A DNA stretch of 32,000 nucleotides from Candidatus Harpocratesius repetitus (GTDB taxonomy: Archaea > Asgardarchaeota > Lokiarchaeia > Sigyniarchaeales > Promethearchaeaceae), in assembly GCA_021498095.1 (NCBI GenBank), contig JAIZWK010000001.1, positions 4,140,001 through 4,172,000 of the forward strand, in the 5' to 3' direction. Under the pieces are notes generated by a model, which saw nothing but the letters and a program-made list of their open reading frames with translations, did not search any database and was not told the DNA's origin. This document shows positions 3,895 to 28,683 of the stretch, piece after piece. A program made the position numbers and the translations under genes. The first letter of the stretch is position 1, and every line of letters starts with the position of its first letter.

Positions 3895-4731
3895 TTAGTG
3901 CTCTTTTTCTTCTTTCAATCCCATGTAAAGCAGTATTACTGCAGGAACTATACCAATATTTATAATTAAATTGATTTTTCGCCCAATTTCTGAATTTAAC
4001 CAATTAAAGACAAAACTTCCCACTATTACTAAATCCATCAAAATCATTCCTGAAAGAGTCATTATATATTTTTTACCATAAATGTCTGATCTCCCAATTT
4101 CTTTATATTGTTTAATCCCAGTCGTAATAATTAAAATGACTAAACTCTGAGAAATCACCATTCCATATAAAAAGAATGCAGTAGACCAGACAGGAACGCC
4201 TAAATCTAAAGGATCAAGTGATTTCTGGTTGTATCCTTCAATACCTTGAAGCCCATTTTTATATTCAAACACAACACCATCTGGAATAAAGAATAATACT
4301 GATAATAAGCAGATGTAAATGAAAGTATAAAGAATCTGTCTTTTTAAAGGAAATCCAACTTGAGATTTTCTGATAATTTGAGCAAAAAAATAGATATTGA
4401 TTAGACCTAAACAAGAAAGTGTAATAGTAAATTTATTTCCAATAATGTTAAATTCATAGGAATCTATTGCGCGATATAAAATATTAATTAAAATTCCGAT
4501 AGCAGGAATGATGAACACTAATGCAAGAGTAATTGATATACGATTTCGTTTTCGAGCTAAAGCTTTAATTGACAAATAAATAAAAAGCATTAAAATTAAG
4601 CCATAAATCACATATACTTGAAGAATTACTGTCGATACCATACTAAATATCAAATATGCAACTATATTTTTTAATTTATCATTCACTATGTAATTGATCT
4701 TTTTTCTTCTATTTAAGATTAATTCATTCAT
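3895..4731 (-). CDS. Stand-alone multi-pass (about 7 TM) membrane protein
   Basis: About seven hydrophobic segments with a polar loop of roughly 30 aa between the 4th and 5th; no soluble catalytic domain. True start may lie downstream. Confidence 0.7.
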   Translation of the reverse strand: MNELILNRRKKINYIVNDKLKNIVAYLIFSMVSTVILQVYVIYGLILMLFIYLSIKALARKRNRISITLALVFIIPAIGILINILYRAIDSYEFNIIGNKFTITLSCLGLINIYFFAQIIRKSQVGFPLKRQILYTFIYICLLSVLFFIPDGVVFEYKNGLQGIEGYNQKSLDPLDLGVPVWSTAFFLYGMVISQSLVILIITTGIKQYKEIGRSDIYGKKYIMTLSGMILMDLVIVGSFVFNWLNSEIGRKINLIINIGIVPAVILLYMGLKEEKEH

Positions 4732-4868
4732 TAATCTATGAATATATTATTCTTTTCACCTCATGGATGACATATATAATGGATACCGATGATTTGAGCA
4801 TATTCCAAGAAATTCATTCAATTCTAACTCTTTTACGGTAGGATCGTTTCTTTTTATCAGAAATCGTT

Positions 4869-7601
4869 GTGTCTGCCATATATTATACAAAAAACACCGA
4901 ACTGCATGATCTATGGAACGTCCCCGAAGGAAAAGAAATCTTCCTTGAAAAAATAACCGATAGCGGCGAAACGTTCAAAGCCAAAGAAGACGGTTTCGTT
5001 TACCAATTCGATAAAGAAACCAATGAATTTTCCACCCTCAAATCCACCGAGCAGATAATCGTCACTAATTGGCTCACCGATGCCCGAAAAATCTCTGTGG
5101 TTGACCCAATTTCTAATTCGATAGTTAAGAAAATCCTCGGCATAAATCTTCCCGATTATCAGACAATGCAGGAAAATATTATCGAAGATGAATCTCTCAA
5201 TCCGAATGCTGAATATTGGAAAGATAACATACAACTTTTCACCAACTTTAATTACAGGTATATTAATTTAATCGGACACGAAAATGGATTTCACTATAAA
5301 AAAGCAGGAATGAATGATGATACACTGATAAAGATCAATGTTGATAAAAATATCGATATGAGCTTGGAGCAGATTCTTAAGGAGCTCGGATTTGAAAATG
5401 TAAAAGGTGTTGAGGATGGAAAAATCCCGCTCGGATTAATTAAAAACCCGAAAATTCAAATGTTGTTTCTACCGATTAAAATTGGAGAAGAAATCTATCA
5501 AATTTTCTCGTATCCAGATAGTCAAACTGTTAAAATTTTGGTAAATGATAAGATAGAAAGTGTGAAAACTGAAAAAGATCAAGAAATACCTTTATATACA
5601 AATATGAATTGGCGGAAAGGCTTGTTTGAAATTAGACTACTTTCATTTGCTTTTAAAAATATTGCAAAAAATCATATTGCTGGAATAAGGCGATATTATA
5701 AAAATAGAAAAAATGCAAATGGATGGAATTTTAAATTAGGCTTACAAAAAATTAGAACTACATTAAAAAATATTTATAAAAATGTTCCTGATATCGCAGA
5801 ACAGCTAAGAAACTTATTTTTTGATTTTAATGCTTTGGATAAAGACCTTCCAGGCGCCGGCACAGAATTAAGAGAGCACTTTTTCGATGAATCTATAGAT
5901 GGATTGAAATATATCAATGAAATAAAGGAATTGTATGAAGCGGATGAAACTCATAAATACTGGCGAATTGTAAGCAAAAATATGAAGACTAAAAAATTAA
6001 TTTGGAAAAAAGAAGTAATTAATCAAATTGAACATATTTTATATAAAATCAGTGAAATTTCCCAAAATGCAGGAGGTTTTTCTTATAAAAATATTGCTGT
6101 TAATCCAAAAGGTGCTGCTAAATATTTGACCCAATTTTTGCAGAAAAGACTTGGATACAGCGAATATTTACAATTTATTAAAGATAAAAGATTAGAAAAT
6201 ATCAACAAATTAAGTTCTGCTTCACAAATTCACGAATGGGAACTGATGCACGCAGCTTGGATTTCTTTGGCATCCCTTTTTACCAATATCGAGGCACTCC
6301 GTTCTACTATTGACTATCTGGTTGAAAATAAATTAGAAACCCCAGATCAAAAAAGAGTTCAAGACTATATTAGCGAAAAAGTAGTTGATGATCATCACTA
6401 CTATGTGCCCCCCAACGCCCTTCCCGACCCAATTATAATAATTGGTGCCAAAAAAACCTCATTTATTGCTAATTTCATACAATTCGGAAAGCAAAAAAGT
6501 GAAGTAATCGATTCGGGAAGAGAAGTGCTGGTTTTCGGTAGTATGGTCGGTCAAATTCAAAATGATGAGGCTCATACAATCAAATTCTTCCAACTCGGCA
6601 CCCCCATCTCAGATGCCGCTAAAGACATTGTCCCCACCACGCCTTCACCCTATTCCATGATAATTCCGCAGTTTTCGATGGATTTGTGGGACCCGGTTAA
6701 AAGAGAATATTATAAAACCAACGAACCCGATATAAATAATGGAATTGAGCGCTTCGTTATGGATTTTCTGGTATTTGAGAACATGCTGAATTTACTTGGA
6801 GCGGACGGCAGTTCGATTAATTGGCGCTATCCCGGTATTTACGGCGTGGGAATGCATGGTAAAAAGGAAACTAATACTGAATATTATACTAAAAAAGCGC
6901 GCAAGGTGTGGACAGCCTTCCAGAACGGCTTATCCATGATAAACATATTTAATAATCAAGAAAGTATTAATACATTTACGAAGATGATGAAAAACAAAAT
7001 TGGTGGAGACGCTTCTAAAATGGTGCTGATTGAACTTGAAGACTGTCGAGCCTTTTTCAACCTACGCAATCTTGCCGAATTTCAAGGCTCCAGCATTCGA
7101 GACTCTGTATCCGTGCTTGCAAAGTGGGTTTATGAGCAGTATACGCTGCATTCATCCGAGCAGGATTTAAAAGATTCAAATTTAAAGATGAAAAGTTTTT
7201 ACAACGATATTAAGTTGATGATGAAAGCAAGAGGTGGTGGAGGAAATGCATACATTGCTACATGGAACCGAATCGAAGGAATCATCAAGGCATTCGGCGT
7301 TAAAGGTGAAACCATAACAATTAAAATAAGTAAAGATAAATCAATTGAATACTTCGTTCCCACTTTAGATGAGAACGGCAACATTCAATTTGACTCCCGA
7401 CTCGACCGGTGGTATGCCCAGATTGAAAATCCTGTAGGCATCTTCAATTCAAATTCACAGTTGTTAATGCTGAAGCAGTGTTTCGCATACTATTTGAAAT
7501 ACAAGAACGAAATGCGCTTGTACTACGAAGAATATGCCGATGAAAGTGCCATGAATAATTTTGATGCATATTTGGATGCGATTGAGGGATTTGTCGGATA
7601 G
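4869..7601 (+). CDS. Large orphan hypothetical protein (910 aa), compositionally mosaic; possible polymorphic effector
   Basis: 2.7-kb open frame with GTG start and no recognisable motif; contains one copy of the 93-bp repeat; GC content varies sharply along the gene. Confidence 0.72.
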   Translation: MSAIYYTKNTELHDLWNVPEGKEIFLEKITDSGETFKAKEDGFVYQFDKETNEFSTLKSTEQIIVTNWLTDARKISVVDPISNSIVKKILGINLPDYQTMQENIIEDESLNPNAEYWKDNIQLFTNFNYRYINLIGHENGFHYKKAGMNDDTLIKINVDKNIDMSLEQILKELGFENVKGVEDGKIPLGLIKNPKIQMLFLPIKIGEEIYQIFSYPDSQTVKILVNDKIESVKTEKDQEIPLYTNMNWRKGLFEIRLLSFAFKNIAKNHIAGIRRYYKNRKNANGWNFKLGLQKIRTTLKNIYKNVPDIAEQLRNLFFDFNALDKDLPGAGTELREHFFDESIDGLKYINEIKELYEADETHKYWRIVSKNMKTKKLIWKKEVINQIEHILYKISEISQNAGGFSYKNIAVNPKGAAKYLTQFLQKRLGYSEYLQFIKDKRLENINKLSSASQIHEWELMHAAWISLASLFTNIEALRSTIDYLVENKLETPDQKRVQDYISEKVVDDHHYYVPPNALPDPIIIIGAKKTSFIANFIQFGKQKSEVIDSGREVLVFGSMVGQIQNDEAHTIKFFQLGTPISDAAKDIVPTTPSPYSMIIPQFSMDLWDPVKREYYKTNEPDINNGIERFVMDFLVFENMLNLLGADGSSINWRYPGIYGVGMHGKKETNTEYYTKKARKVWTAFQNGLSMINIFNNQESINTFTKMMKNKIGGDASKMVLIELEDCRAFFNLRNLAEFQGSSIRDSVSVLAKWVYEQYTLHSSEQDLKDSNLKMKSFYNDIKLMMKARGGGGNAYIATWNRIEGIIKAFGVKGETITIKISKDKSIEYFVPTLDENGNIQFDSRLDRWYAQIENPVGIFNSNSQLLMLKQCFAYYLKYKNEMRLYYEEYADESAMNNFDAYLDAIEGFVG
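5817..5909 (+). repeat. 93-bp direct repeat, copy 1 (inside the 910-aa ORF; encodes FFDFNALDKDLPGAGTELREHFFDESIDGLK)
   Basis: Manual alignment with 8693-8785: 89/93 identical, no gaps; mismatches at 5831/8707, 5861/8737, 5895/8771, 5902/8778. Confidence 0.97.
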
Positions 7602-7642
7602 AAGATTGGTCTGCCCAAGAGCGGGTTAATTTTTTAATATCG

Positions 7643-7651
7643 TTTTTTTTT
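7643..7651 (+). terminator. Possible archaeal oligo-T terminator after the 910-aa ORF
   Basis: T9 run about 40 nt after the stop codon, preceded by another T-run. Confidence 0.35.
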
Positions 7652-7706
7652 AATATACATTGGATAAGAAAATAAATGGAAATGGAAAAAAAATGGATGA
7701 AGCATT

Positions 7707-8657
7707 ATGCATAATGAAAATCCAAAATATGTGAGATACAGTCAAATTTATAGCGATAAAATAGTATTAACACTGGTTAGGCAGGATTTTGATGTTAAAA
7801 ATTGGAAAGATGTTGATAAAGTATATAAATTAGAAGCATACGATTGTATTTATCCCAATAATGAAGCAGATTTTTCAGCTTTCATTAACTGTAAAGAAAT
7901 TGAAATATCTGGAGAAAATCAGCTGCGGGTGGTTAAATGGCCGCCGAAAATAGAATCAATTCTAATTTTTGAATTTCCAAATCTAAAAATACCCCTAAAG
8001 TGCGACCAATACCAATATTTAAGGAAATTCACAACTATTGCTGCCGTTTTAGATGACTACAACATAGATTTCGCCCATTGCTATCGCCTGCGGGAAATTT
8101 CAATTGGTGAAGACTTTCTTTGCGAGTGGTATGCAAATATGTTCGATGGTGAAAAAATAACGCTGCCGCCCAAAAACGATGGAAAGCACCGCATGAAGCA
8201 GGTTCCCATCAATTGGGCATTCTGCATTTCATTAGAAAAATTGAAATTAAATAGTTTACGCGAAGTAAAGGAAATTCCGATTGAATTTACCCATAATCCT
8301 GAATTATGGATTAACATTTCAAATCTTCCTCATATTCCTCATATTTCATTTCTGCTGATTGAGTTCTGGGACTGCACCCAGTTTGAAAACAGCGAAAATT
8401 TCATGCTGATTTTTGATTCGTTCATCCATCCCCGAAAGCAGAAGAATATCGAGCGCTATAAAGAGTGGGAGAAACTATATTTTGAAGAATACGGGTTTGA
8501 AACTACGTGGACTGCTGAGCGGATTAAATTTATGGATTACGCTTTAATTGCTGCGGAGCAAATTCCAGAAAAAGAACTGCGAGAGGAATATATAAGGTGG
8601 GCAAAAAACTTTAGGCCTAAGTTTAAATTGAAAAGCGGCTACGAGATTATCATGTAA
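7707..8657 (+). CDS. Hypothetical protein with leucine-rich-repeat-like segments (316 aa); possible immunity protein
   Basis: Repeated LxxLxL/I-type patterns (CDQYQYLRKFTTI, FAHCYRLREISI, WAFCISLEKLKLNSLREVKEIP, INISNLPHIP) and a helical C-terminus. Confidence 0.6.
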   Translation: MHNENPKYVRYSQIYSDKIVLTLVRQDFDVKNWKDVDKVYKLEAYDCIYPNNEADFSAFINCKEIEISGENQLRVVKWPPKIESILIFEFPNLKIPLKCDQYQYLRKFTTIAAVLDDYNIDFAHCYRLREISIGEDFLCEWYANMFDGEKITLPPKNDGKHRMKQVPINWAFCISLEKLKLNSLREVKEIPIEFTHNPELWINISNLPHIPHISFLLIEFWDCTQFENSENFMLIFDSFIHPRKQKNIERYKEWEKLYFEEYGFETTWTAERIKFMDYALIAAEQIPEKELREEYIRWAKNFRPKFKLKSGYEIIM

Positions 8658-8659
8658 GA

Positions 8660-8896
8660 TTGTTATATTTTAAACTAATTTGGTTTACAAATTTTTTTGA
8701 TTTTAACGCTTTGGATAAAGACCTTCCAGGCGCCGGTACAGAATTAAGAGAGCACTTTTTCGATGAATCTTTAGATGAATTGAAAACTGATCATGTCTTA
8801 TTTTTTCTTTTATTTTATCTATTCCCCATTTTGATCCCACCTATTATAGATGGAAAAATTAAAGGGAAATCACAGATATATTTTATTACTGATTGA
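8660..8896 (+). pseudogene. Gene relic carrying an in-frame copy of an internal peptide of the 910-aa ORF
   Basis: Translation contains FFDFNALDKDLPGAGTELREHFFDESLDELK; the flanks are T-rich and look non-coding. Confidence 0.45.
8693..8785 (+). repeat. 93-bp direct repeat, copy 2
   Basis: 89/93 identity to 5817-5909; offset 2876 bp. Confidence 0.97.
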
Positions 8897-8911
8897 TTTA
8901 GTGATTATTTT

Positions 8912-9076
8912 ATGGCGAAAAAAACCACCAAGAAATCGAAATCTTCTTCAAAATCGAAATCTCAAGATAAGAATAAACCAACTAAAAAAGATATAGAATT
9001 AGAAAAAACGAAAAAAGATGCAGATTTGGAGAAAAAGGAAAATAAAGCTCAAGAACCCTCAACTGAAAAGTTGTGA
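8912..9076 (+). CDS. Short Lys/Ser-rich ORF (54 aa, not in the ORF track); probably the N-terminus of the following membrane protein
   Basis: Manual translation: MAKKTTKKSKSSSKSKSQDKNKPTKKDIELEKTKKDADLEKKENKAQEPSTEKL*. ATG at 8912; stop overlaps the GTG of 9073..9387. Confidence 0.6.
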   Translation: MAKKTTKKSKSSSKSKSQDKNKPTKKDIELEKTKKDADLEKKENKAQEPSTEKL

Positions 9077-12479: not shown

Positions 12480-15400
12480 CTATTCTGTTTTAATTAATGA
12501 TGCAATTTTCATTTGCACTTTAATTAGGTGATTTTTCTTCAATCGCTTTATAGCCTCAAGAAAATGGTCCAATGCTGTATGAGAAGTTGATCGTTTTCCG
12601 AAGAAATTCATAACAACGCGCTGTAAAGATTCTAAAGGCATTTTACCACCATCTTTTAAAACAAAAAGAATACATTTAGATATTTCATAAAGTGAAATCA
12701 TGTTAAATTTACGAGGATCATCTTTAGGATGTAAGGTTATCCGACATTTGAATGATAATTGAGATTTATAATCTTTAGGAAGTAAAAATCCCGGTTCACT
12801 TTGGTAATCAACAATATCTTGAGAGAAAATTAAATCAGATATTTTCTGCTTTACATAATTAGATTTCTTCTTGTATCCAAAAAGAGTAGACATTCGTGAA
12901 ACGAGAAGATCAAAGTGAATTGGCCCTTCTTTTGTAACAATTTCTTGAATATATTCTTCAATTACTCTTTCATATGCAGGATCATGAAAGTCATCAGTAG
13001 AAAAATCTTCTTCAAAGCTTACAATTTTATATTCTTTGACTCCTGGAATAGATAATAATTTTTTCCGGAAAATTACACTATTTCGCCTTTGACTTGTCAA
13101 TGATTCTAGATCTTGCTCATTAAATACAAAGAAAGTGCTTGATTCAGTAATATCTTTAATTTCTGAAATATTAGTCAGATTAGAAGATGAATTTTGCTTA
13201 TATTGGTGAAGTGCCTTTGTAGATGAAATTGATGAAGATAAACTTTTCACTTTCTCTTTTTCTAGTGTACAGAGGTTATATACTATTCCTGATATTTCCT
13301 TCAAGATTTTCTCATAATTTTGAAACCATTCCACAGAATAAATATGATATAGATTCCAACCTAAACTCTGAAGAACATTAGGTCGAATTCGAAATCGTTC
13401 AGTCGCATTAGGAGCAAATGCATAACTTCCATGATCTAGAATAATACCTAAAATATATCTGGATGAATCAAAAGGATGCACAATTGCAAGATCAATTTGG
13501 TTTTTGGATTTACCTACACCAATGTCGACATTGAAACCTTGATCCTTTATTTTATTCGCAATAGAACGCTGTAAATCAGTTTTAAGAGTTAATGAAGCTT
13601 GTAATAGCGCTCCAGAATTTGAAAATACACTTGTATTGTTGCTTGTATTTTTTATTGTTTGAGAATAAACAAATTGCAAGAATTGAAAAAAATCACGCAA
13701 ACCTTTACTTTGAGTGCGCTTAAAATCAATTTCATTCGGATTGAAAGAGCAGAAGATTTCCATGCGATATCGAGCACGTGTAATTGCTACATTTAAACGA
13801 CGTTCACCACCCATTTGATTTAGAGCTCCAAAATTCAATCTAAATTCTCCATTATAATCGTATCCATATCCAATGGAGAAAAATATAACATCACGTTCAT
13901 TTCCTTGGACATTTTCGATATTTTTGATAAAAAGACGCTCAGGACCAATATAATCAACCAATTTTTCCTTTTCAAGATTAGCTTTTAACTTTTTTGCCAG
14001 AGCTTTTTGAATTGCATCCATTTGGGCTTCATTAAAAGCAATTACCCCTAAACTAAGGGATCTCTTCTGAACTTGATTATTTTGATAATGTTCTAAGATA
14101 GCATTTGCAACTGCTTCTGCTTCAACCTTATTAGTTCGTGATTTTCCTCTATCATATTTTCCTTCTTTAATGTAATGAAAATTGATAGCACTCGTTGAAA
14201 TATCCCTAAATATATCTGGGAATGTATTAAGCATGTGGGAATAATAATTATAGTTGGAAAAAACAATCAAATTTTCCCGTTTTGATCGATAATGATTTTT
14301 TAATGTAAAAACGGGTAACCCAATAACCATAGCTTCTTCTAACACGCTTTCGTATGATGATAAATCAGGATCAGTAAATTCTGATTCATCAAATAACTGT
14401 GATGTAAAAAATCGAGTAGGAGGTAATTGTTTCTCATCACCTACTACCACCACTTGTTTTCCTCGAATAATAGCACCAATTGCATCTTCAGTACAAATTT
14501 GAGACGCTTCATCAAATATTACCAAATCAAAATATTGATAAAATCTCTCTAAAGGTAGATAGGTCGCAACTGAGAGAGGGCTCATTAGTAAACAGGGTTT
14601 AAGAGTTAAAAGATAATCTCTGCTGTAATCTAAAATGTCTCGCAACGGCTTAATATTTCTTCGCTTTATTAATTCACGATTTAAAAAACCAATTTCAGTA
14701 ATCTCATCATCTTGATAAAGCCATGGAGCGATAGGCCGATTTTCAAACAATCGTTTTGCTAATCGATATCGATTAATACGTAATAGATTGGCATCAATTT
14801 CTTTGAAATTTTTAATATTTTTAGAGTATTTTTCTAATCGAAATCTAGAAAGTGATGGATTTGATTGAATTACGCGCTCTAACCATTGTATCAAATAAGT
14901 TTTTCGAAATTTGGCGGCAAAATTGGGGGATATTGCAGAAATCATTAATTCTTTTATTAAAAAATCAAGTTGTTTCGATTTAAGTTGCTGCAAACTTTTA
15001 GAAAAATCAACCCATTGAGAATAAGATTTGAGTTGTGCCTGCCAATATGAACACCATTCAGCTAATTGTGTCCAATAATTATCAGATTCTATAATGTTTA
15101 CAATAGATATAGGTAATTTTGCCAGAATTGGATTGTTTTGTAATTTTAATAACGATTTTAGTTTATTATTTAATTCATTAAAATGAGTTTGAAATAATTG
15201 AGGATTATTTTTAGCCAAATTGTGACCCGCTTGATATATTTCCTTGTTAATATAAGAATTTTGCACCAATTTTATACGTTGTATATGATTTTTGATGAGT
15301 TCAAATCGATTTTTCCGTTTTAAGAGATTTGAAATTAGTTTTTTCCGATATTGATAAAATGTTATGGAAAAAAAACGCCTTGTATTATCGAAATTATTGA

Positions 15401-17528
15401 TATACTCTTGTTCTATTGCATTAATATCTACACTTAAACTTGCCAATGAATAAAAAGAAAAGAAATCAGCTAATTTTTCAAAATCTGAAGGAGAATCTAT
15501 CGATTTAAACCCATAACGATGATAGAATAATTCTAATTTTTCTTGAAATACTGTTAAAGCAATTTGAAAATTCAGCAATGCTTCTTGGATTTCAAGATAA
15601 GAATATTCAGGAGGTTGATTAAATGAACAAAGGCGCCATGAATAAGAATCATAATTCGCTCGGATATCAGAAAAATCTTCAATCGTAGATAAAATGTCTT
15701 CAATTTCATCTAAATCATTCTCATCGTATGCATCAATATTTGGAATACGGCCTGAAAATTCTTTAATTTCGCGCAATTGATCCAAAGCAGCTAGTTTTTG
15801 TTCAACCAAACTCTCAGTTGTGCCAATCGTTTTATTAATTTCGCTAACATACGAATTTAAATGCTGTTTCAAGCGTGATAAGGAATGATATTTTTCATTA
15901 GGAACCACAAACGGCTTTAGCTCCGTGTTGTAGGTATGACTGATTTGATCCATAACTTGGCGTTTATTGGACTTATCAGAATGCAATTCTAAACAAAATT
16001 CACCAATTCCAGTCTTATCCAACCGTTCTTTTACCACTTCCAAAGCGGCCGATTTTTGAGCAACAAATAATACTTTTTCATTATCTGAAAGACATTCCGC
16101 AATAATATTGGCAATACATTGGCTTTTTCCTGTTCCAGGTGGTCCCCTAATGACGCATGAATAACCTTGTTCAATGTAAGAGACCGCTTGTAATTGACTA
16201 TGATCTATATCAAGAATGGAAAATGCATTTATTGCCTCTTCATTTTTGGTTCTTTCATCAGTTAATTGTGAAGTATCAATATTTTGAGAATAATGAGAAA
16301 GTTCAGCCAGGCTGCGAATAAATGGGTGTTTAAAAAATAATGGCTTGAAATCATACAGATCTTGAAATAATGGAATTTTATTAAATGCAAAAAAACTAAT
16401 AAATGTGCGAAAAGTTATTTCCCAAGCAGGATACGGTTCGATTTTTTGTGAAAGTTGTTCAAAGTACTTCAATATCTGCTCTTTTGAATATTCGCCTTCA
16501 TAAGAAGGAAATTGAAAATTAAAATCAATTTTCATCTTGTGCATCAAAGAAGGGTTGATAATGAGATTTTCATCCAAAATTTGAACAGTATGAAGGGTTT
16601 TGACAGAAATACGACTTATTTTAATTGGAACAAAAAGAATTGGGCTGTAATTAATTTCATCACTATTTTTTTCCTGCCATTTAAACAAACCAAAAGTGAA
16701 ATAAAGTGCATTTACTCCTTTTTCTTCCAAAAAATTTTGATTTTTAGCCACAAATCGAGAAAGACGCTTTTCTAATACTTTGTCATCGACATTTGCAACC
16801 ATTTTATTTGGTGGAGGTGATTCAAGAATTTTAAATAGAGCTTGCTCGTACAAGAATTTGATTTTTTGATTTCTCTCATTTTCATTCTTTTCTTCTTCTT
16901 TATTTTCTCTTTCTTTTTTATCTACTTTTTTTTTGTCTTCCCAATTCTGTGTCTTTTTATCTAAATTTGCTTGGGAATGCGATTTTCGTCTAATCACAGA
17001 ATCGGGATGGAATACTGGCTGAAAATGAAGTCGTTTTTCTTCACCTACAAGCTGCTGGAATAAGGAAGTTAAAGGAGGAGAAATAATTTCTATTGTACGT
17101 TTTGAATGAGGTCGAAAATTCAATTGAAAATTACGTTTACTAAGATCCAATAAGTACTGCTTCCAAATTCGAAATTTTTTCTCAAATTTGGGCGTATAGT
17201 CAACTTTTTCTACTTTAAGCTGATGAATTCGAATTGAATCTTGATCTTCTGACCCTTCAGCTTGAATATTACCTTCTTTAGAAATTTCTGAAATTAAATC
17301 AGATTGACAGTGTGGGCAGGTGGTTAAATTTTCTTCAATTTGTGCGGAACAAAATGGACAAAAAGTATATCCTCTGGGCAGAAATGATTCACAAACCATA
17401 TATTCTTGCTTAATTTTTATTCCATACTTTATACAAAAGCCATCGTAAGCTTGAGAGAAATTTGCACAATTTTTACAATTTTCATCTGATCGCTTTTCCA
17501 AAGGTCGAAATCCGGGAGGTTGCACCAC
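12480..17528 (-). CDS. DUF4011 - Upf1-like SF1 helicase (AAA_11/AAA_12) - Vsr/MTES_1575-like nuclease - DUF3320 protein (HheA-like), with extra N-terminal Cys-rich modules
   Basis: DUF4011-like WKQYLLDLSKRNFQLNF and EEKGVNALYFTFGLFKW...SPILFVP; helicase motifs GPPGTGKS, DLVIFDEASQ, VVGDEKQLPP, HYRS, ENVQGNERD, RLNVAITRAR; nuclease-like IDLAIVHP...LQSLGW; C-terminal EGPIHFDLL winged helix. Confidence 0.9.
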   Translation of the reverse strand: MVQPPGFRPLEKRSDENCKNCANFSQAYDGFCIKYGIKIKQEYMVCESFLPRGYTFCPFCSAQIEENLTTCPHCQSDLISEISKEGNIQAEGSEDQDSIRIHQLKVEKVDYTPKFEKKFRIWKQYLLDLSKRNFQLNFRPHSKRTIEIISPPLTSLFQQLVGEEKRLHFQPVFHPDSVIRRKSHSQANLDKKTQNWEDKKKVDKKERENKEEEKNENERNQKIKFLYEQALFKILESPPPNKMVANVDDKVLEKRLSRFVAKNQNFLEEKGVNALYFTFGLFKWQEKNSDEINYSPILFVPIKISRISVKTLHTVQILDENLIINPSLMHKMKIDFNFQFPSYEGEYSKEQILKYFEQLSQKIEPYPAWEITFRTFISFFAFNKIPLFQDLYDFKPLFFKHPFIRSLAELSHYSQNIDTSQLTDERTKNEEAINAFSILDIDHSQLQAVSYIEQGYSCVIRGPPGTGKSQCIANIIAECLSDNEKVLFVAQKSAALEVVKERLDKTGIGEFCLELHSDKSNKRQVMDQISHTYNTELKPFVVPNEKYHSLSRLKQHLNSYVSEINKTIGTTESLVEQKLAALDQLREIKEFSGRIPNIDAYDENDLDEIEDILSTIEDFSDIRANYDSYSWRLCSFNQPPEYSYLEIQEALLNFQIALTVFQEKLELFYHRYGFKSIDSPSDFEKLADFFSFYSLASLSVDINAIEQEYINNFDNTRRFFSITFYQYRKKLISNLLKRKNRFELIKNHIQRIKLVQNSYINKEIYQAGHNLAKNNPQLFQTHFNELNNKLKSLLKLQNNPILAKLPISIVNIIESDNYWTQLAEWCSYWQAQLKSYSQWVDFSKSLQQLKSKQLDFLIKELMISAISPNFAAKFRKTYLIQWLERVIQSNPSLSRFRLEKYSKNIKNFKEIDANLLRINRYRLAKRLFENRPIAPWLYQDDEITEIGFLNRELIKRRNIKPLRDILDYSRDYLLTLKPCLLMSPLSVATYLPLERFYQYFDLVIFDEASQICTEDAIGAIIRGKQVVVVGDEKQLPPTRFFTSQLFDESEFTDPDLSSYESVLEEAMVIGLPVFTLKNHYRSKRENLIVFSNYNYYSHMLNTFPDIFRDISTSAINFHYIKEGKYDRGKSRTNKVEAEAVANAILEHYQNNQVQKRSLSLGVIAFNEAQMDAIQKALAKKLKANLEKEKLVDYIGPERLFIKNIENVQGNERDVIFFSIGYGYDYNGEFRLNFGALNQMGGERRLNVAITRARYRMEIFCSFNPNEIDFKRTQSKGLRDFFQFLQFVYSQTIKNTSNNTSVFSNSGALLQASLTLKTDLQRSIANKIKDQGFNVDIGVGKSKNQIDLAIVHPFDSSRYILGIILDHGSYAFAPNATERFRIRPNVLQSLGWNLYHIYSVEWFQNYEKILKEISGIVYNLCTLEKEKVKSLSSSISSTKALHQYKQNSSSNLTNISEIKDITESSTFFVFNEQDLESLTSQRRNSVIFRKKLLSIPGVKEYKIVSFEEDFSTDDFHDPAYERVIEEYIQEIVTKEGPIHFDLLVSRMSTLFGYKKKSNYVKQKISDLIFSQDIVDYQSEPGFLLPKDYKSQLSFKCRITLHPKDDPRKFNMISLYEISKCILFVLKDGGKMPLESLQRVVMNFFGKRSTSHTALDHFLEAIKRLKKNHLIKVQMKIASLIKTE

Positions 17529-24933: not shown

Positions 24934-27900
24934 TTAAATTTTAAGTAATTGTTTTTCTGATGGAAGAATAGGAAGTTTTTCAAAAATATTAAGTAAATAT
25001 GATTTTATTTCTGAATTATTGCTCTGTAACACATCTAATGTAAAAAAGGCTAATTTTACTCCAAAATGGTCTTCTAAGATTTTTTTTACTAATCCTAATC
25101 CATTTAAGACTTCATCAAGTTGTGTTTGAATTTCAGAAACTGGTTTATTCTCATGAATTAAACATAAAGTAGAAAGAAATATCATTAAACTTGCAGAAGT
25201 ATAATCATTTCGTCGCGCCATTCGTTTTGATAATTTAATGTATTTTTGAAAAGCTTCTTTATATCGATTTTTTGAAAGATCACTAAAAATTTCCTGATAA
25301 TAAGTTCGAATCATTTTTTCTCTTTTTTTAAGCAATAAAGAAAACTCATTACTTAATTTGGTAATATCTTGGATTAAAACAATAGCTTGTTGCCCTAATA
25401 AACTATCTTCTTTTAAGGTTTCACCTACTTTAATAGATTCAACTCTCTGTGACTTATTATCTGAAGATTTCTTATCCTCTTGCTGAAATTTCTGGGTTAA
25501 TCGAACTATAAATGAGATTTCCCAGTCAAAAAGTGGAAGCTTTGTCTGAAATGCATTAAAAATATCAAGTATCATCTTTTGTGAATTAGGGTGTTCCCAA
25601 TAGTGTAAAACTAGTTCTAATAATTGAATCGGAATACTTGACATTAAATCTCCATATTTTTTTCCATATTGAAATACAAATTTCTCAAACTCATTATAAA
25701 CTTCATCAGATGTTTTAACTTTAAGCATTGTTATAAATCCCATAATTATTGAGACAATCGAAAACTCAAAATAATTATGGTTAAACATATTGAGAGATTG
25801 TTCAAAATATGATACAGATGCATCTTCGTATTCTTGTCGTGCAAAATGATCTTGACAATCACCCCAATATTTTAAATCAAAGGAAATTCTCCGATTTTTT
25901 AATTGAATATCAGGATAAAGTTTTTCAATCAAAATTAAGTAATTAGATGGAATTGTAGATTTAATCTTTGATAATAATTCTTGATGCCCAGATAAGATAC
26001 GAGAAAAATCAATTTCTTCTCCAAGTAGTGTTTCTAAAATAAGTCGTTCTTCAGGGAAAAATGCAAATACATCAAATAATTGAAGAGCAGATTTTAATTG
26101 TTTAGGTTTATTTGCTTCAATCATCTGAATTAGATAATCGATAAGTTGGTATGCATAAGTTTTTTTAAAAATATCAAATGAGATCCGAGAATTATTCGTA
26201 AACTTATGAATTTCATGTTTCAAAGTATTTATGTTCTTTAATGTAAGGAAAAGTAGAGAGACCACAGCGAGATTTACTCCGGCTAATTCAAATTTTTTAC
26301 TTGCGGCTAAATCTTCAGCTGTTTTTAGATATTTTTCAATTGATTTATAATATTGTCCTTCTCTAAATAATTTGATAGCATCTTGATAATATCGACGTTT
26401 TAGTCCAGTTCGCATTCGTAGTAAATTGACAGATGCAATTCGCTGATCTCGAGCGCGATTTTGCAATTGTGATAATTTCTCAGCAAATATTTTTGCTTTT
26501 TGATTTTGATGGATTTGTTCAACTTTTGATCGACTTAACTCTGATTCGATTTCATCGATTTTTTCGCAATAAGATTGAGACAGTTGGAAATTAGAGATCT
26601 TTTCTGCATACGTTCTAGCTTCACTGTATAAATGATTTTTTAAATAGTATTTTACAATGGTTACATAAATAGAATCTAAATTTATTTCTTCATTTTCTAA
26701 ATAGCTTTTTGTTGTTAAATCTATTTTATTAATCTGTTCAAATAAAGTTGATAACCCTTTTACTTCAATTTTATGAGAAATTAATTCTGCGTAAGCGAGA
26801 AGTTCTTCAAGATACAATTTAGCTAAAAGACGAGATTCTTCATACAGTAGATGATTGCGATATAATCTTATAAAATTAAATAATAATTTCTCCGTTTCTT
26901 CACTTGTCTTATCAGAGTCAGTAAACTTCATTCTATCAAAATGTTCTTTAAGTCGTGGAAATTCATTTTTTAAAAATTTCTTTCTTTGGATTTCAGGAAG
27001 TTTTGAAATATATTTTATTATTTTTTTAATTTTCCCATTATTTAAATTAATCTTTAAAAAATATAGTAAAATTTGATGATTATAATATTCTTGTCCAATT
27101 TGTAAAAACCAATCTGCTTGTTTTAGCAAAATATTCTCAACAAATTGAATATTGTTATGCTGAAGTTCAAATTCTAAATCTTGATATAGATCTTCCATCA
27201 TTTGATCAAATTTTGATTTCTCATATTCAATATATTCAAATAAGAAATCAGTTTTTAAACCTAACTCTTCTAATTCTCCTTTTCGGGCTAAATTTTTAAA
27301 GCGCTCTTCAGTTTCCATTCGATATTTAGTTAATTCGATTTGTAATATTGTATCATTAATTTTTGGAATTATACCTTCAGCTTTTAAGAAATCACGCCGC
27401 TCTATGAATAGTCTTGCCATTTTATAAAGTATTTCATCTACATTTTCTGTTTCAATATTATAGGTCTCCCAAATAGTAGTAAGTTCATCATAGCTCAATC
27501 GTGCAGTATCAACATCACCTATATTTAAATTTCTAATTATTATTCTCTTTAATATTTTCACCGCTTTCCGAGCAAGAACTTGCAATGATTCAAATAACCC
27601 TGACTTTTGATATCGCTGAAAACATAGATATAATTGTGCTTTTGCAAGCCCATCTTGGTTTTTTTCGATTAATTGATCAGCAAGATGAGCAATTTTTTCT
27701 GTCATCTCTTCTAATATGGTGATCATTCTAAAATGATCAAATTTATCTAATAAAGCAAATGCATTTTGCAATTCATGTTGTGCAATCCAAGCATCAATCG
27801 CAAGTTTATAGCACTCTTCCATTAAAGGAATATCATCAAGTTCCATTTTTATCCAATTTCCAACCGTTTCAAATTTTAACGCGGCAGATTCATATTTATT

Positions 27901-28683
27901 TTGAGATAATAATACTTTTGCTTCTTCAATTATTGTATTTGCATAGTCCTTTTGATACTTCTTAAAGAAAATAGGGTTTATTTGTCGAATTATTTGAGCT
28001 GCTTTTAAATAATTTCCACTTTTTGCATAGAGATTAGCTGTTTTTTCAGCAAGAATATAATAATCTTGAGAATCTGAACGTTTTTGAATATTAATCACTC
28101 GTTCACACAAAACCGCTGCCGGCAGAAATTTAGATTGAGATATAAATTCATTTATTTTCGAATAATAAAGGGGTTTTTGAATCCAAGCAATATCGGAATT
28201 AATGTTTCTTTGACCAGAAATCACCGATTGACATAAAGTTATTAAATATTCACGTATCATGCCAATTTCTGTTCGTGGAATAATAAAAATACAAGCCGAA
28301 GAACGAAAAGAGATATCTTTTATGATTTCCGATATATCTGCTTTAAGAATAGCATCCATAGTTTGAATCACAATTATCATCGGAATATCAGGGCGAATTT
28401 TTTCAATTTGATCTAATACATGTTGAAGCTTTTCAATATTTCCTATTTGATTAGGATCCAAATAAAATAAAATTCCATCCGCCATACTAATTGAATTTTT
28501 TCCTTGTTCTTCTACGTTATGAGGAATGAGAAGAGATAATTCTATTTCATCATCTTCTAGTGTAAAAACTGTTGTATACTGAACATCTTGACCCTCATCT
28601 TTACTCTGGAATCCAATTTCATTAAATCCTTGCATGGCTGAAAAAATATCACCCAACACAGCAAATGTTAATACAAATTGCAA
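24934..28683 (-). CDS. Degenerate Ras-like GTPase-fold domain fused to a TPR/SNAP-like alpha-solenoid (1249 aa)
   Basis: N-terminal ADGILFYLDP...IEKL..VLDQIEK.RPDIPMIIV follows small-GTPase secondary structure without G1/G3/G4 consensus; the remainder has TPR-like A..Y..A/G helical pairs. Confidence 0.72.
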   Translation of the reverse strand: MQFVLTFAVLGDIFSAMQGFNEIGFQSKDEGQDVQYTTVFTLEDDEIELSLLIPHNVEEQGKNSISMADGILFYLDPNQIGNIEKLQHVLDQIEKIRPDIPMIIVIQTMDAILKADISEIIKDISFRSSACIFIIPRTEIGMIREYLITLCQSVISGQRNINSDIAWIQKPLYYSKINEFISQSKFLPAAVLCERVINIQKRSDSQDYYILAEKTANLYAKSGNYLKAAQIIRQINPIFFKKYQKDYANTIIEEAKVLLSQNKYESAALKFETVGNWIKMELDDIPLMEECYKLAIDAWIAQHELQNAFALLDKFDHFRMITILEEMTEKIAHLADQLIEKNQDGLAKAQLYLCFQRYQKSGLFESLQVLARKAVKILKRIIIRNLNIGDVDTARLSYDELTTIWETYNIETENVDEILYKMARLFIERRDFLKAEGIIPKINDTILQIELTKYRMETEERFKNLARKGELEELGLKTDFLFEYIEYEKSKFDQMMEDLYQDLEFELQHNNIQFVENILLKQADWFLQIGQEYYNHQILLYFLKINLNNGKIKKIIKYISKLPEIQRKKFLKNEFPRLKEHFDRMKFTDSDKTSEETEKLLFNFIRLYRNHLLYEESRLLAKLYLEELLAYAELISHKIEVKGLSTLFEQINKIDLTTKSYLENEEINLDSIYVTIVKYYLKNHLYSEARTYAEKISNFQLSQSYCEKIDEIESELSRSKVEQIHQNQKAKIFAEKLSQLQNRARDQRIASVNLLRMRTGLKRRYYQDAIKLFREGQYYKSIEKYLKTAEDLAASKKFELAGVNLAVVSLLFLTLKNINTLKHEIHKFTNNSRISFDIFKKTYAYQLIDYLIQMIEANKPKQLKSALQLFDVFAFFPEERLILETLLGEEIDFSRILSGHQELLSKIKSTIPSNYLILIEKLYPDIQLKNRRISFDLKYWGDCQDHFARQEYEDASVSYFEQSLNMFNHNYFEFSIVSIIMGFITMLKVKTSDEVYNEFEKFVFQYGKKYGDLMSSIPIQLLELVLHYWEHPNSQKMILDIFNAFQTKLPLFDWEISFIVRLTQKFQQEDKKSSDNKSQRVESIKVGETLKEDSLLGQQAIVLIQDITKLSNEFSLLLKKREKMIRTYYQEIFSDLSKNRYKEAFQKYIKLSKRMARRNDYTSASLMIFLSTLCLIHENKPVSEIQTQLDEVLNGLGLVKKILEDHFGVKLAFFTLDVLQSNNSEIKSYLLNIFEKLPILPSEKQLLKI

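Follow-up and report, generated by a model that had tools for sequence, protein, structure and literature searches.

A 93-base direct repeat in an Asgard archaeal genome as the probable leftover of a mobile two-gene module linked to IS607-family elements

A stretch of 32,000 nucleotides (nt) from the genome of the Asgard archaeon Candidatus Harpocratesius repetitus (4.36 Mb, 31% GC, a single contig; the stretch is genome 4140001-4172000, hereafter the window, and window positions count from its first letter) contains an open reading frame (ORF) of 910 amino acids (aa), gene 1, followed by an ORF of 316 aa, gene 2, and then by a 93-nt copy of an internal segment of gene 1. An earlier reading of this arrangement, here called the original prediction, took it for a polymorphic effector/immunity cassette in which the repeat is a handle for exchanging toxin tips. 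We find that the region 4677-9069 is probably a decayed copy, devoid of ends, of a selfish two-gene module carried by an IS607-family element, and that it bears the scars of several recombination events. As judged from sequence comparison, the 93-base repeat appears to be the leftover of a second copy and not a tip-swapping device, and the locus would be an ordinary scar of mobile-element recombination. To the question as it was posed the answer is therefore negative: no archaeal tip-swapping toxin system emerges, and the repeat reads as a scar. What retains interest is an Asgard family of IS607 type with a lineage-restricted passenger pair, modestly novel in its cargo and in the frequent loss of its right end.

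A dispersed module family and its IS607-type carrier

The module (gene 1 plus gene 2) is represented by 15 full or partial copies resembling that in the window (W-type) and by five divergent paralogous pairs (d-type), and these 20 copies are dispersed over the chromosome. In tblastn searches gene 1 matched 12 W-type places at 73-88% identity (100% for the window itself) and four distant places, and gene 2 matched about 20 places, with the W-type copies 80-98% identical. Gene 1, which had been described as an orphan, thus belongs to a family that is high-copy within its own genome, a caution that a gene without database relatives may still have many relatives close at hand. A word-indexed search of 5.8 billion proteins returned for both genes only proteins of this genome or contig, and of 1.84 billion representatives searched with a profile 11 matched, four of them distant relatives of 461-995 aa. 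The family was found in none of 40 related genomes (0 of 2 from the same genus and 0 of 13 from the same family), many of which are incomplete assemblies from which repeats may be missing.

The original prediction had suggested a search of the genome for paralogs with different C-termini. Paralogs were found, and they vary by 5' truncation and not in their tips. All 12 W-type tblastn hits (window included) end at residue 909-910 of the same homologous sequence, and the distant paralogs likewise align to the C-terminal end. Two longer paralogs match over residues 6-910 at 79% identity, and truncated copies start at residues 215, 255, 316, 385, 385, 438, 527, 616 and 844. Gene 2 follows each W-type copy of gene 1, and at the DNA level 14 of the 15 copies terminate 0-37 nt beyond the gene-2 stop codon. 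Only c2401, a 353-bp fragment with an internal deletion, breaks off earlier, within gene 2. The 5' ends of the W-type copies fall at window-equivalent positions 4890 (three copies), 5511, 5629, 5723 (two copies), 6021, 6077, 6416, 6714, 7441, 7805, 8253 and 8383. Long flanking direct repeats accompany three of the 15 copies, namely the window copy (93 bp), c2264 (249 bp, 99.6% identical) and c1337 (78 bp, 88%).

Open frames are kept in most truncated copies. Comparison among copies gives a ratio of non-synonymous to synonymous substitution rates (dN/dS) of about 0.2 in gene 2 and in all parts of gene 1, and of 0.23 between truncated copies, and the copies have therefore diverged under protein-level constraint. 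At four of the divergent loci gene 1 is 25-37% identical to that of the window and is followed each time by a gene-2 homolog at 31-34%, and at the fifth a gene-2 homolog lies behind a 185-aa fragment of gene 1. Paralogs of 489 aa represent the C-terminal domain of gene 1 alone, so that this domain together with gene 2 appears to form the core of the module.

Transposons of the IS607 family encode a serine recombinase, TnpA, and usually a RuvC-like protein, TnpB, as a second gene, which is common among them though not obligatory. Upstream of copy c336 there is a complete tnpA gene whose 242-aa product contains a MerR-type helix-turn-helix (Pfam MerR, residues 3-39) followed by a resolvase catalytic domain (Pfam Resolvase, residues 67-201), and which scores 164 bits against the NCBIfam equivalog NF033518, "IS607 family transposase" (cutoff 110). 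The next ORF encodes 107 aa. tnpA or pieces of it occur at 17 genome loci, and 10 of the 20 module copies have a tnpA piece on the same strand no more than 3.5 kb upstream. The pieces retain the 5' end of the gene (aa 1-82, 1-141, 1-165, 1-199 and 1-234), and at c1576 and c2653 a tnpA fragment (aa 1-82 and 1-234 among them) is joined directly to a gene-1 or gene-2 fragment that retains its 3' end. This arrangement suggests that the apparent series of 5' truncations consists largely of internal deletions of one larger element.

The left end of the element is sharp in 12 of 12 aligned copies: their homology sets in at AACTTATCAACAGC..., about 85 nt ahead of the tnpA start, and the near-palindrome TGATCAAACTTGATCA is part of this end. 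The canonical right end, aligned in about seven copies, consists of the left-end core in inverted orientation followed by GTAAAAAATT(A/G)TCA. Elements that possess both ends measure 562 bp, 966 bp, 967 bp, 4.9 kb and 12.6 kb, and a target-site duplication is present at none of these five. Two derivatives of about 966 bp have one internal deletion in common and are 92.6% identical exactly over the element, with unrelated flanks. The occurrence of shared-deletion derivatives at two loci without target duplication looks like the behaviour expected of IS607-type elements mobilised in trans. Two loci hold a d-type unit that comprises the left end, tnpA (aa 1-141), a small ORF, the 489-aa gene 1' and gene 2'. 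Between the left end and a point about 10 nt beyond gene 2' the two are 95% identical, which indicates that an element of this type has carried the module along when it moved.

In its order of TnpA domains (with a score above the NCBIfam cutoff), its shared and defined ends, its lack of target duplication and its non-autonomous deletion derivatives at several loci, the family resembles IS607 elements. It differs in its cargo, which consists of a small ORF, a predicted nuclease-fold protein and a leucine-rich repeat (LRR)-like protein, with a 2942-aa ORF in another member; no Pfam hit to TnpB/OrfB was obtained for the cargo ORFs tested (gene 1, gene 2, the small ORF and a 402-aa ORF). A further difference is that most module copies stop right after gene 2 without a canonical right end, and the window copy has neither end. 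Internally deleted, non-autonomous derivatives of DNA transposons are familiar from Ac/Ds-type elements and miniature inverted-repeat transposable elements (MITEs). The present derivatives are similar in keeping one or both ends with variable internal loss, and in the occurrence of the same deletion derivative at two loci, but many of them keep a coding two-gene module under purifying selection.

Several other sequences are associated with the family. The 12.6-kb element (genome 3159195-3171838, minus strand) has the same left and right ends and carries tnpA (aa 1-199), a zinc-ribbon ORF (TFIIB-like by eye), a 406-aa ORF and the 2942-aa ORF, a fragment of which forms a 3' extension behind gene 2 in c1337, c1576, c2513 and c2653. 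Sites of about 55 bp that fuse the outer left end, the palindromic core and the outer right end (3058578-3058632, 893568-893622, 243909-243963, 1956442-1956496 and 2473388-2473442) may be minimal elements or footprints of recombination between both ends. The full-length copy c2917 is preceded by an ORF of 397 aa that belongs to no known family (genome 2918853-2917660, minus strand); at c1337 a 453-nt portion of this ORF, 90% identical, continues in frame into the truncated gene 1, making an ORF of 711 aa. Tandem repeat arrays are located about 1.0-1.5 kb upstream of c3889 (about 3889900-3890500) and upstream of c2653 (about 2649900-2650700); self-comparison gives periods of about 60 and about 69 nt.

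Junctions and scars in the window copy

Both ORFs of the original prediction and the T9 tract between them are present (Table 1), and its description of the repeat is accurate. A repeat search of the window returns the direct repeat as the single outstanding one: its copies are identical at 89 of 93 positions (96%; BLAST E 1e-35, far beyond chance), lie 2876 nt apart from start to start and flank 2783 nt of insert, and the second is placed 35 nt after the gene-2 stop. Of the four differences, two are, as had been observed, synonymous third-position changes (AAT/AAC and GGC/GGT), and the other two change residues (I>L and G>E). Both copies begin at codon phase 0, so that a deletion of 2876 nt between them would be in frame, and the earlier arithmetic on this point is right. 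One of the conditions under which the prediction was to fall was that the repeat occurs only here; the 93-mer is present at eight places in the genome, at only one of which it is a free-standing fragment.

Table 1. Features of the module copy and its surroundings, in window positions
Feature	Position	Strand	Remarks
DDE insertion-sequence remnant	4677-4903	-	terminal 227 nt of an insertion sequence of ~1.57 kb; 3' end of transposase gene
Gene 1, window copy	4869-7601	+	910-aa ORF, GTG start, 5'-truncated
Overlap of insertion sequence and gene 1	4890-4903		14 nt, AAAAACACCGAACT; apparent microhomology junction
Repeat copy 1	5817-5909	+	inside gene 1, codons 317-347
Restriction-endonuclease-like (PD-(D/E)xK) fold, predicted	6453-7100	+	gene-1 residues ~529-744, part of the conserved C-terminal domain
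Gene-conversion tract (edges approximate)	6840-8450	+	100% identical to copy c1576 (genome 1576343-1573701)
T9 run	7643-7651	+	spacer between gene 1 and gene 2
Gene 2	7707-8657	+	316-aa repeat protein, N-terminal half LRR-like
Spacer of 35 nt	8658-8692	+	common only to copy c3285 (first 17 nt also in c336)
78-aa ORF	8660-8896	+	spans repeat copy 2 and the "tail"
Repeat copy 2	8693-8785	+	probable remnant of a second gene-1 copy
Partial duplicate of M24 peptidase locus	8786-9069	+	92% identical to genome 3287131-3287423

Homology was said to end abruptly on both sides of the downstream 93-mer. This is correct for the right edge, but not for the left, where the 16 nt that precede the repeat are also derived from gene 1. 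These 16 nt (8677-8692, AATTTGGTTTACAAAT) match gene 1 of c2797 exactly at window-equivalent ~5733-5749, about 68 nt upstream of the 93-nt segment within gene 1, and 0 of 1000 shuffles reach the score of this match. The remnant (8677-8785) is therefore longer than 93 nt and patchy. Behind gene 2 there appear to stand, in collinear order, the segments ~5733-5749 and 5817-5909 of a second gene 1, from which the intervening 67 nt are absent. At three of its four differences from the upstream copy the downstream 93-mer has states common to other paralogs, and it is therefore no recent self-duplicate; one variant is unique to the downstream fragment.

At its left side the block abuts the remnant of a DDE insertion sequence (IS) of about 1.57 kb that is present in about 10 genome copies (e.g. 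4082158-4083727 and 4316278-4317842). This IS encodes a 434-aa transposase (Pfam DDE_Tnp_1, E 4.7e-11) and has inverted ends of about 20 nt (CATTCACTATGTAATTGATC...). In the window the outer edge of the remnant is sharp at 4677, and all other copies of the IS run on past 4903. IS homology extends to 4899-4903, and homology to the full-length paralogs c2264 and c2917 begins at 4890; the resulting overlap of 14 nt has the appearance of a microhomology joint of illegitimate recombination or deletion. Since the full-length paralogs (951 and 983 aa) reach about 181 nt further in the 5' direction, gene 1 of the window is truncated and its GTG start lies in IS DNA, with the first 7-11 codons inside the remnant. 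On the other side of the same remnant is an ORF for a 278-aa membrane protein (3895-4731, minus strand), whose annotated start and first ~18 codons lie inside the IS. The ortholog of this protein in a genome of the same genus (G002) aligns from residue 31 only, and insertion of the IS probably gave the protein a new N-terminus in place of the native one.

Within the block, a tract of about 1.6 kb (~6840-8450) is 100% identical to c1576, and the parts around it are 78-95% identical (150-nt sliding windows, so that the edges are approximate). Mosaic identity profiles are found in sliding comparisons among all module copies. A fully identical tract amid more divergent flanks, together with these mosaic patterns, points to gene conversion among the dispersed copies that is both recent and frequent, and the tract in the window is one recent product of it.

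The right flank of the block originates from a different part of the genome. Positions 8786-9069 correspond to 126 nt of upstream DNA and the first 52 codons of a Peptidase_M24 gene, the intact version of which encodes 375 aa at genome 3287266-3288393. The 37-codon "tail" (8786-8896), which in the original prediction would be fused to the N-terminal part of gene 1, is therefore duplicated non-coding DNA. The 78-aa ORF that includes it is composed of a gene-1 fragment and this duplicated DNA from upstream of the peptidase gene, and is for that reason most likely no real gene. Between the thymidylate kinase and M24 peptidase genes, 135 nt upstream of the peptidase start codon, there is a miniature IS607-type element of 562 bp (genome 3286570-3287131) with a left end, tnpA aa 1-66 and a right end, and its canonical right end abuts the exact nucleotide at which homology to window position 8786 begins. 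Copy c3285, the sole copy with the whole 35-nt spacer of the window, is located 1.3 kb from the peptidase locus, beyond the thymidylate kinase gene. The simplest reading is that the block in the window descends from an element beside the peptidase gene and was copied together with 284 nt of host flank. No match to the IS607-type left end (up to 7 mismatches) or right end (up to 6 mismatches) was found in genome 4140001-4172000, and none to tnpA within the window.

The comparison of the locus across relatives, which had been proposed as a check, was informative for one genome: of the four nearest genomes searched, only G002 had both anchor genes on one contig. The interval from the membrane-protein gene to the cupin gene is 0.77 kb in G002 as against 4.78 kb in the window. 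The cassette is absent there, and the slot (G002:C31, about 4603-5250) holds one unrelated gene of 215 aa and is not a clean empty site. Relatives of this 215-aa gene in the present genome are only 29-31% identical paralogs elsewhere. The locus of the block is accordingly a variable accessory slot.

Predicted proteins and a possible history of the locus

Sequence searches with gene 1 and gene 2 returned nothing usable from Pfam, PHROGs (only E > 0.05), NCBIfam, PADLOC, PDB sequences or the ESM Atlas. In Pfam the 910-aa protein matched no family at E up to 1, and the 983-aa paralog gave only a sub-threshold match to WH1. An AlphaFold2 model of gene-1 residues 385-910, from an alignment that included the distant relatives, has a predicted template modelling score (pTM) of 0.69 and a confident core. 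In VIA-align, an aligner independent of Foldseek, its best match is TnsA of Tn7 (1t0f_A; Z 6.7, root-mean-square deviation 2.8 A, 112 residues), and below it come many nucleases of the restriction fold at Z 4-5.8. The top rows of a Foldseek search against the PDB are Can2, Mus81-Eme1, R.BspD6I, NucC, AddAB, NucS, BstEII and PaqCI (best E 0.09), and the viral database BFVD yielded DUF1064, restriction enzymes and endonucleases (E 0.007-0.3); hits of this fold in the PDB and BFVD lists together span E 0.007-0.7. Such scores, as the notes of the tools caution, fall short of proving a fold; because the three lists agree, a PD-(D/E)xK-like domain in gene 1 is a reasonable lead. Residues conserved with the distant relatives are E72, E168, D248, N254, H279 (D in one paralog) and K292 in the numbering of the domain. 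Although TnsA is the best structural match and both proteins are transposon-encoded, the two share 15% sequence identity, the Z score is below the level at which the tool claims a fold, no catalytic motif could be placed and there are no partners like TnsB or TnsC.

For gene 2 the proposed LRR character is suggested at the level of fold by weak but consistent Foldseek matches of the predicted model, and there is no Pfam LRR hit. The AlphaFold2 model (pTM 0.56) is confident only for residues 13-135, which match almost exclusively LRR domains in Foldseek at E 0.01-0.3 (XopL, 4fcg, at E 0.01; LGI1 with probability 1.0). Internal repeats are visible in the alignment of paralogs, and the distant paralogs carry extra units. 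A complex prediction for the C-terminal domain of gene 1 with gene 2 gave a score of 0.00 against a mark of 0.32, which speaks neither for nor against binding.

From these data we infer the following order of events and mechanism of deletion. The module would comprise a gene 1 of about 950-980 aa, with a conserved C-terminal domain of about 520 aa, and a gene 2 of 316 aa, carried as cargo by a serine-recombinase element in the order left end, tnpA, small ORF, (other DNA), gene 1, gene 2. This element may have left about 20 full, internally deleted or truncated copies that still exchange sequence by homologous recombination, with internal deletions joining a tnpA fragment that retains its 5' end to a gene-1 or gene-2 fragment that retains its 3' end. 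In the donor of the window block a second copy of gene 1 would have been situated head-to-tail behind gene 2, and later deletions would have trimmed it to the patchwork now at 8677-8785, one deletion end coinciding with the boundary between element and flank at the donor locus. The whole block, with 284 nt of donor host flank, could then have been copied to its present position at a break in the DDE insertion sequence, joined on the left by the 14-nt microhomology, and part of it may later have been overwritten by gene conversion from c1576. As for the biochemical roles of the two proteins, our working guess is that they are a nuclease and an LRR partner which aid the persistence or spread of the element, as TnpB or restriction-modification genes do for theirs. 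On this account the genome of an Asgard archaeon would be remodelled by its repeat families, by way of flank transduction, gene conversion and IS-linked capture.

A number of points weigh against this reading. One genome cannot reveal the order of events, and the assembly at the junction 8692|8693 is without independent support. The match of the 16-nt spacer is exact only to c2797, and against the window's own variant of gene 1 it is not significant (61 of 1000 shuffles). The three longest copies of gene 1 (c2264, c2917 and that of the window) have no tnpA nearby, and the module might therefore be an independent unit that often lands in or beside IS607 elements. The canonical right end is absent from most module copies. 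A rare 11-mer, present 10 times in the genome and on four of these occasions just after a gene-2 stop, in two lineages, gives a hint of an alternative right end at that stop; an 11-mer common to two lineages is too little to claim a recombination site there, and we have set this candidate aside. The fold matches of gene 1 are weak (best Z 6.7, and no Foldseek hit below E 0.001), the canonical D...(D/E)xK motif could not be placed in the alignment of the domain, and gene 1 gave no sequence-profile hit to any nuclease in Pfam, in PDB sequences (by phmmer and profile) or in PADLOC.

Alternative explanations and known mobile systems

The most serious alternative is that the repeat arose in a single step. 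A circular or linear cassette lacking the 5' part of gene 1, and running from ~5817 through gene 2 to the end of the spacer at 8692, would have recombined through ~93 nt of homology into a resident gene-1 remnant that ended at 5909 beside the peptidase flank, either as a Campbell-type insertion or with a long target duplication. Such an event is possible but on balance rather unlikely. It would explain both edges of the repeat without coincidence, 5817 being the incoming end and 5909 the end of the resident remnant; the long repeats around c2264 and c1337 suit it as well, and three of the four differences place the two 93-mers in different lineages. Target duplications of 46-423 bp around units with a restriction-enzyme gene are documented in the part of PMC2853133 used here, and gene 1 is predicted to be restriction-endonuclease-like. 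Against it, the gene-1 16-mer stands directly before the downstream 93-mer and is also present in c3285, which has no 93-mer, a situation better accommodated by a longer copy trimmed by deletions, and the nearest relative shows no switch exactly at 5817-5909 in sliding windows, though mosaicism is found everywhere. Public short-read contigs show no joint of a circle or of a 2876-nt deletion, but their patchy cover makes them uninformative on this point. A single genome cannot decide between a trimmed second copy and a single-step insertion, and the evidence favours the trimmed remnant. The Campbell-type scar offered in the original prediction was thus close to the evidence in regarding the repeat as a by-product of recombination among copies of a mobile module, but our preferred explanation remains the remnant of a second copy. 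More speculative, and in our estimate unlikely, is that gene 1 and gene 2 constitute a previously unrecognised IS607 accessory module, a nuclease of restriction-endonuclease fold with an LRR partner in place of TnpB, in which DNA cutting drives copying from the fixed 3' end into breaks in a homing-like or break-induced manner. If true, this would unite the fixed 3' boundary and variable 5' ends, the microhomology joints, the flanking duplications of 78-249 bp, the carried host flank and the long conversion tracts, and it would be the first archaeal counterpart of the mobility of restriction-modification units. Such a nuclease-plus-LRR accessory module merits experiment and, if the nuclease activity is real, would provide a test case for the spread of selfish nucleases in archaea.

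Programmed tip swapping through 93-nt handles, in the style of Rhs, CDI or MafB loci, has in its favour that the repeat is in frame at both places, that a possible nuclease is followed by a small partner gene as in a toxin locus, and that truncated copies with a partner gene superficially resemble orphan modules. No alternative C-termini exist, however (12 of 12 W-type copies end at 909-910), gene 2 is 80-98% identical, and the copies are dispersed and not arrayed. The would-be tail is non-coding DNA from upstream of the peptidase gene, Pfam searches found no RHS, haemagglutinin or other delivery domains, and the 93-mer is free-standing at only one of its eight places, so that this explanation is extremely unlikely and seems close to refutation by the sequence criteria used here. 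We also consider very unlikely a diversification from silent cassettes, as in pilE/pilS or vls systems, in which promoter-less truncated copies would donate sequence by gene conversion to a small number of expressed full-length copies and so vary a nuclease/LRR pair. The tract of 1.6 kb shared at 100% with the truncated c1576, amid 80-90% elsewhere, the mosaic profiles of all copies and the mostly open frames of the truncated copies (dN/dS 0.23) would agree with it, but dispersed repeats undergo gene conversion without any programme, the divergence is spread along the genes and not confined to variable blocks, and half of the copies are linked to transposase fragments, so that the decay of transposons accounts for the truncations. 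Assembly error, with mis-joins among the repeats of a long-read assembly as the source of the 93-nt fragment and the odd junctions, is highly unlikely. The region is indeed repeated about 15 times at 80-100% identity, and public short-read contigs (two runs from one sample) are fragmentary here, with none across 8692|8693 among the matches listed. Yet a short-read contig, probably from the same sample as the assembly, covers 8740-8903 without differences and bridges 8785|8786, the fragment bears variants of its own, one of them unique, and the junction of the 35-nt spacer is independently present at c3285.

The layout of Rhs, CDI and MafB loci is comparable to that of the present family: in both a small partner gene stands behind the gene of a large protein, and 5'-truncated copies retain homology to the main gene. 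The C-termini and the partner gene of the present family are conserved, however, delivery or repeat domains were not found in Pfam searches, and the copies occupy 15 dispersed positions without forming an array; behind the window copy there is only a remnant of 128 nt. A different parallel is provided by Furuta, Abe and Kobayashi (2010; PMC2853133), who, in the portion of their report drawn on here, describe bacterial restriction-modification units bordered by long target duplications of 46-423 bp; their screen kept no example from an archaeon. Their criteria include R and M genes in the insert, an insert of <20 kb, a direct duplication of >30 bp and an unduplicated target in a related genome. 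The present family is similar in that a unit with a predicted restriction-endonuclease fold lies between direct repeats of 78, 93 and 249 bp in three of 15 copies, with no recombinase within the flanked segment, and the 93 nt around 2783 nt of the window copy fall within the size limits given in that portion. Flanking duplications of this kind have, as far as that portion goes, been described only around bacterial restriction-modification genes. The differences are that no methyltransferase was found by Pfam in the insert, which departs from the requirement stated there for both R and M genes; that in the window the repeated sequence belongs to the module and does not represent unique DNA of the host; and that no unduplicated target is available, as the family occurs in 0 of 40 related genomes and the slot in G002 contains the unrelated 215-aa gene.

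Some further mechanisms and elements were considered and set aside. LINE-like retroposition is at odds with truncated copies joined to transposase fragments that bear a left end, and there is neither a reverse transcriptase nor an A-tail. Rolling-circle or one-ended transposition was considered, and there was no Rep/HUH match among the Pfam results. An inversion joining c3285, the miniature element and the peptidase flank was likewise considered and is not put forward here. Aloposons, described in Heimdallarchaeum (PMC8813620), were rejected on the features given in the part of that publication consulted, according to which they integrate at tRNA genes and carry tandem genes for proteins of 3000-6000 aa together with a ParA/MinD-like ATPase. 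They resemble the present family as Asgard-archaeal mobile elements with very large ORFs, given the 2942-aa ORF, but of the features named in that part, integration at tRNA genes, tandem giant genes and a ParA/MinD-like ATPase, none was seen here.

Two very large ORFs lie elsewhere in the window, both on the minus strand, at 12480-17528 (1682 aa) and 24934-28683 (1249 aa).

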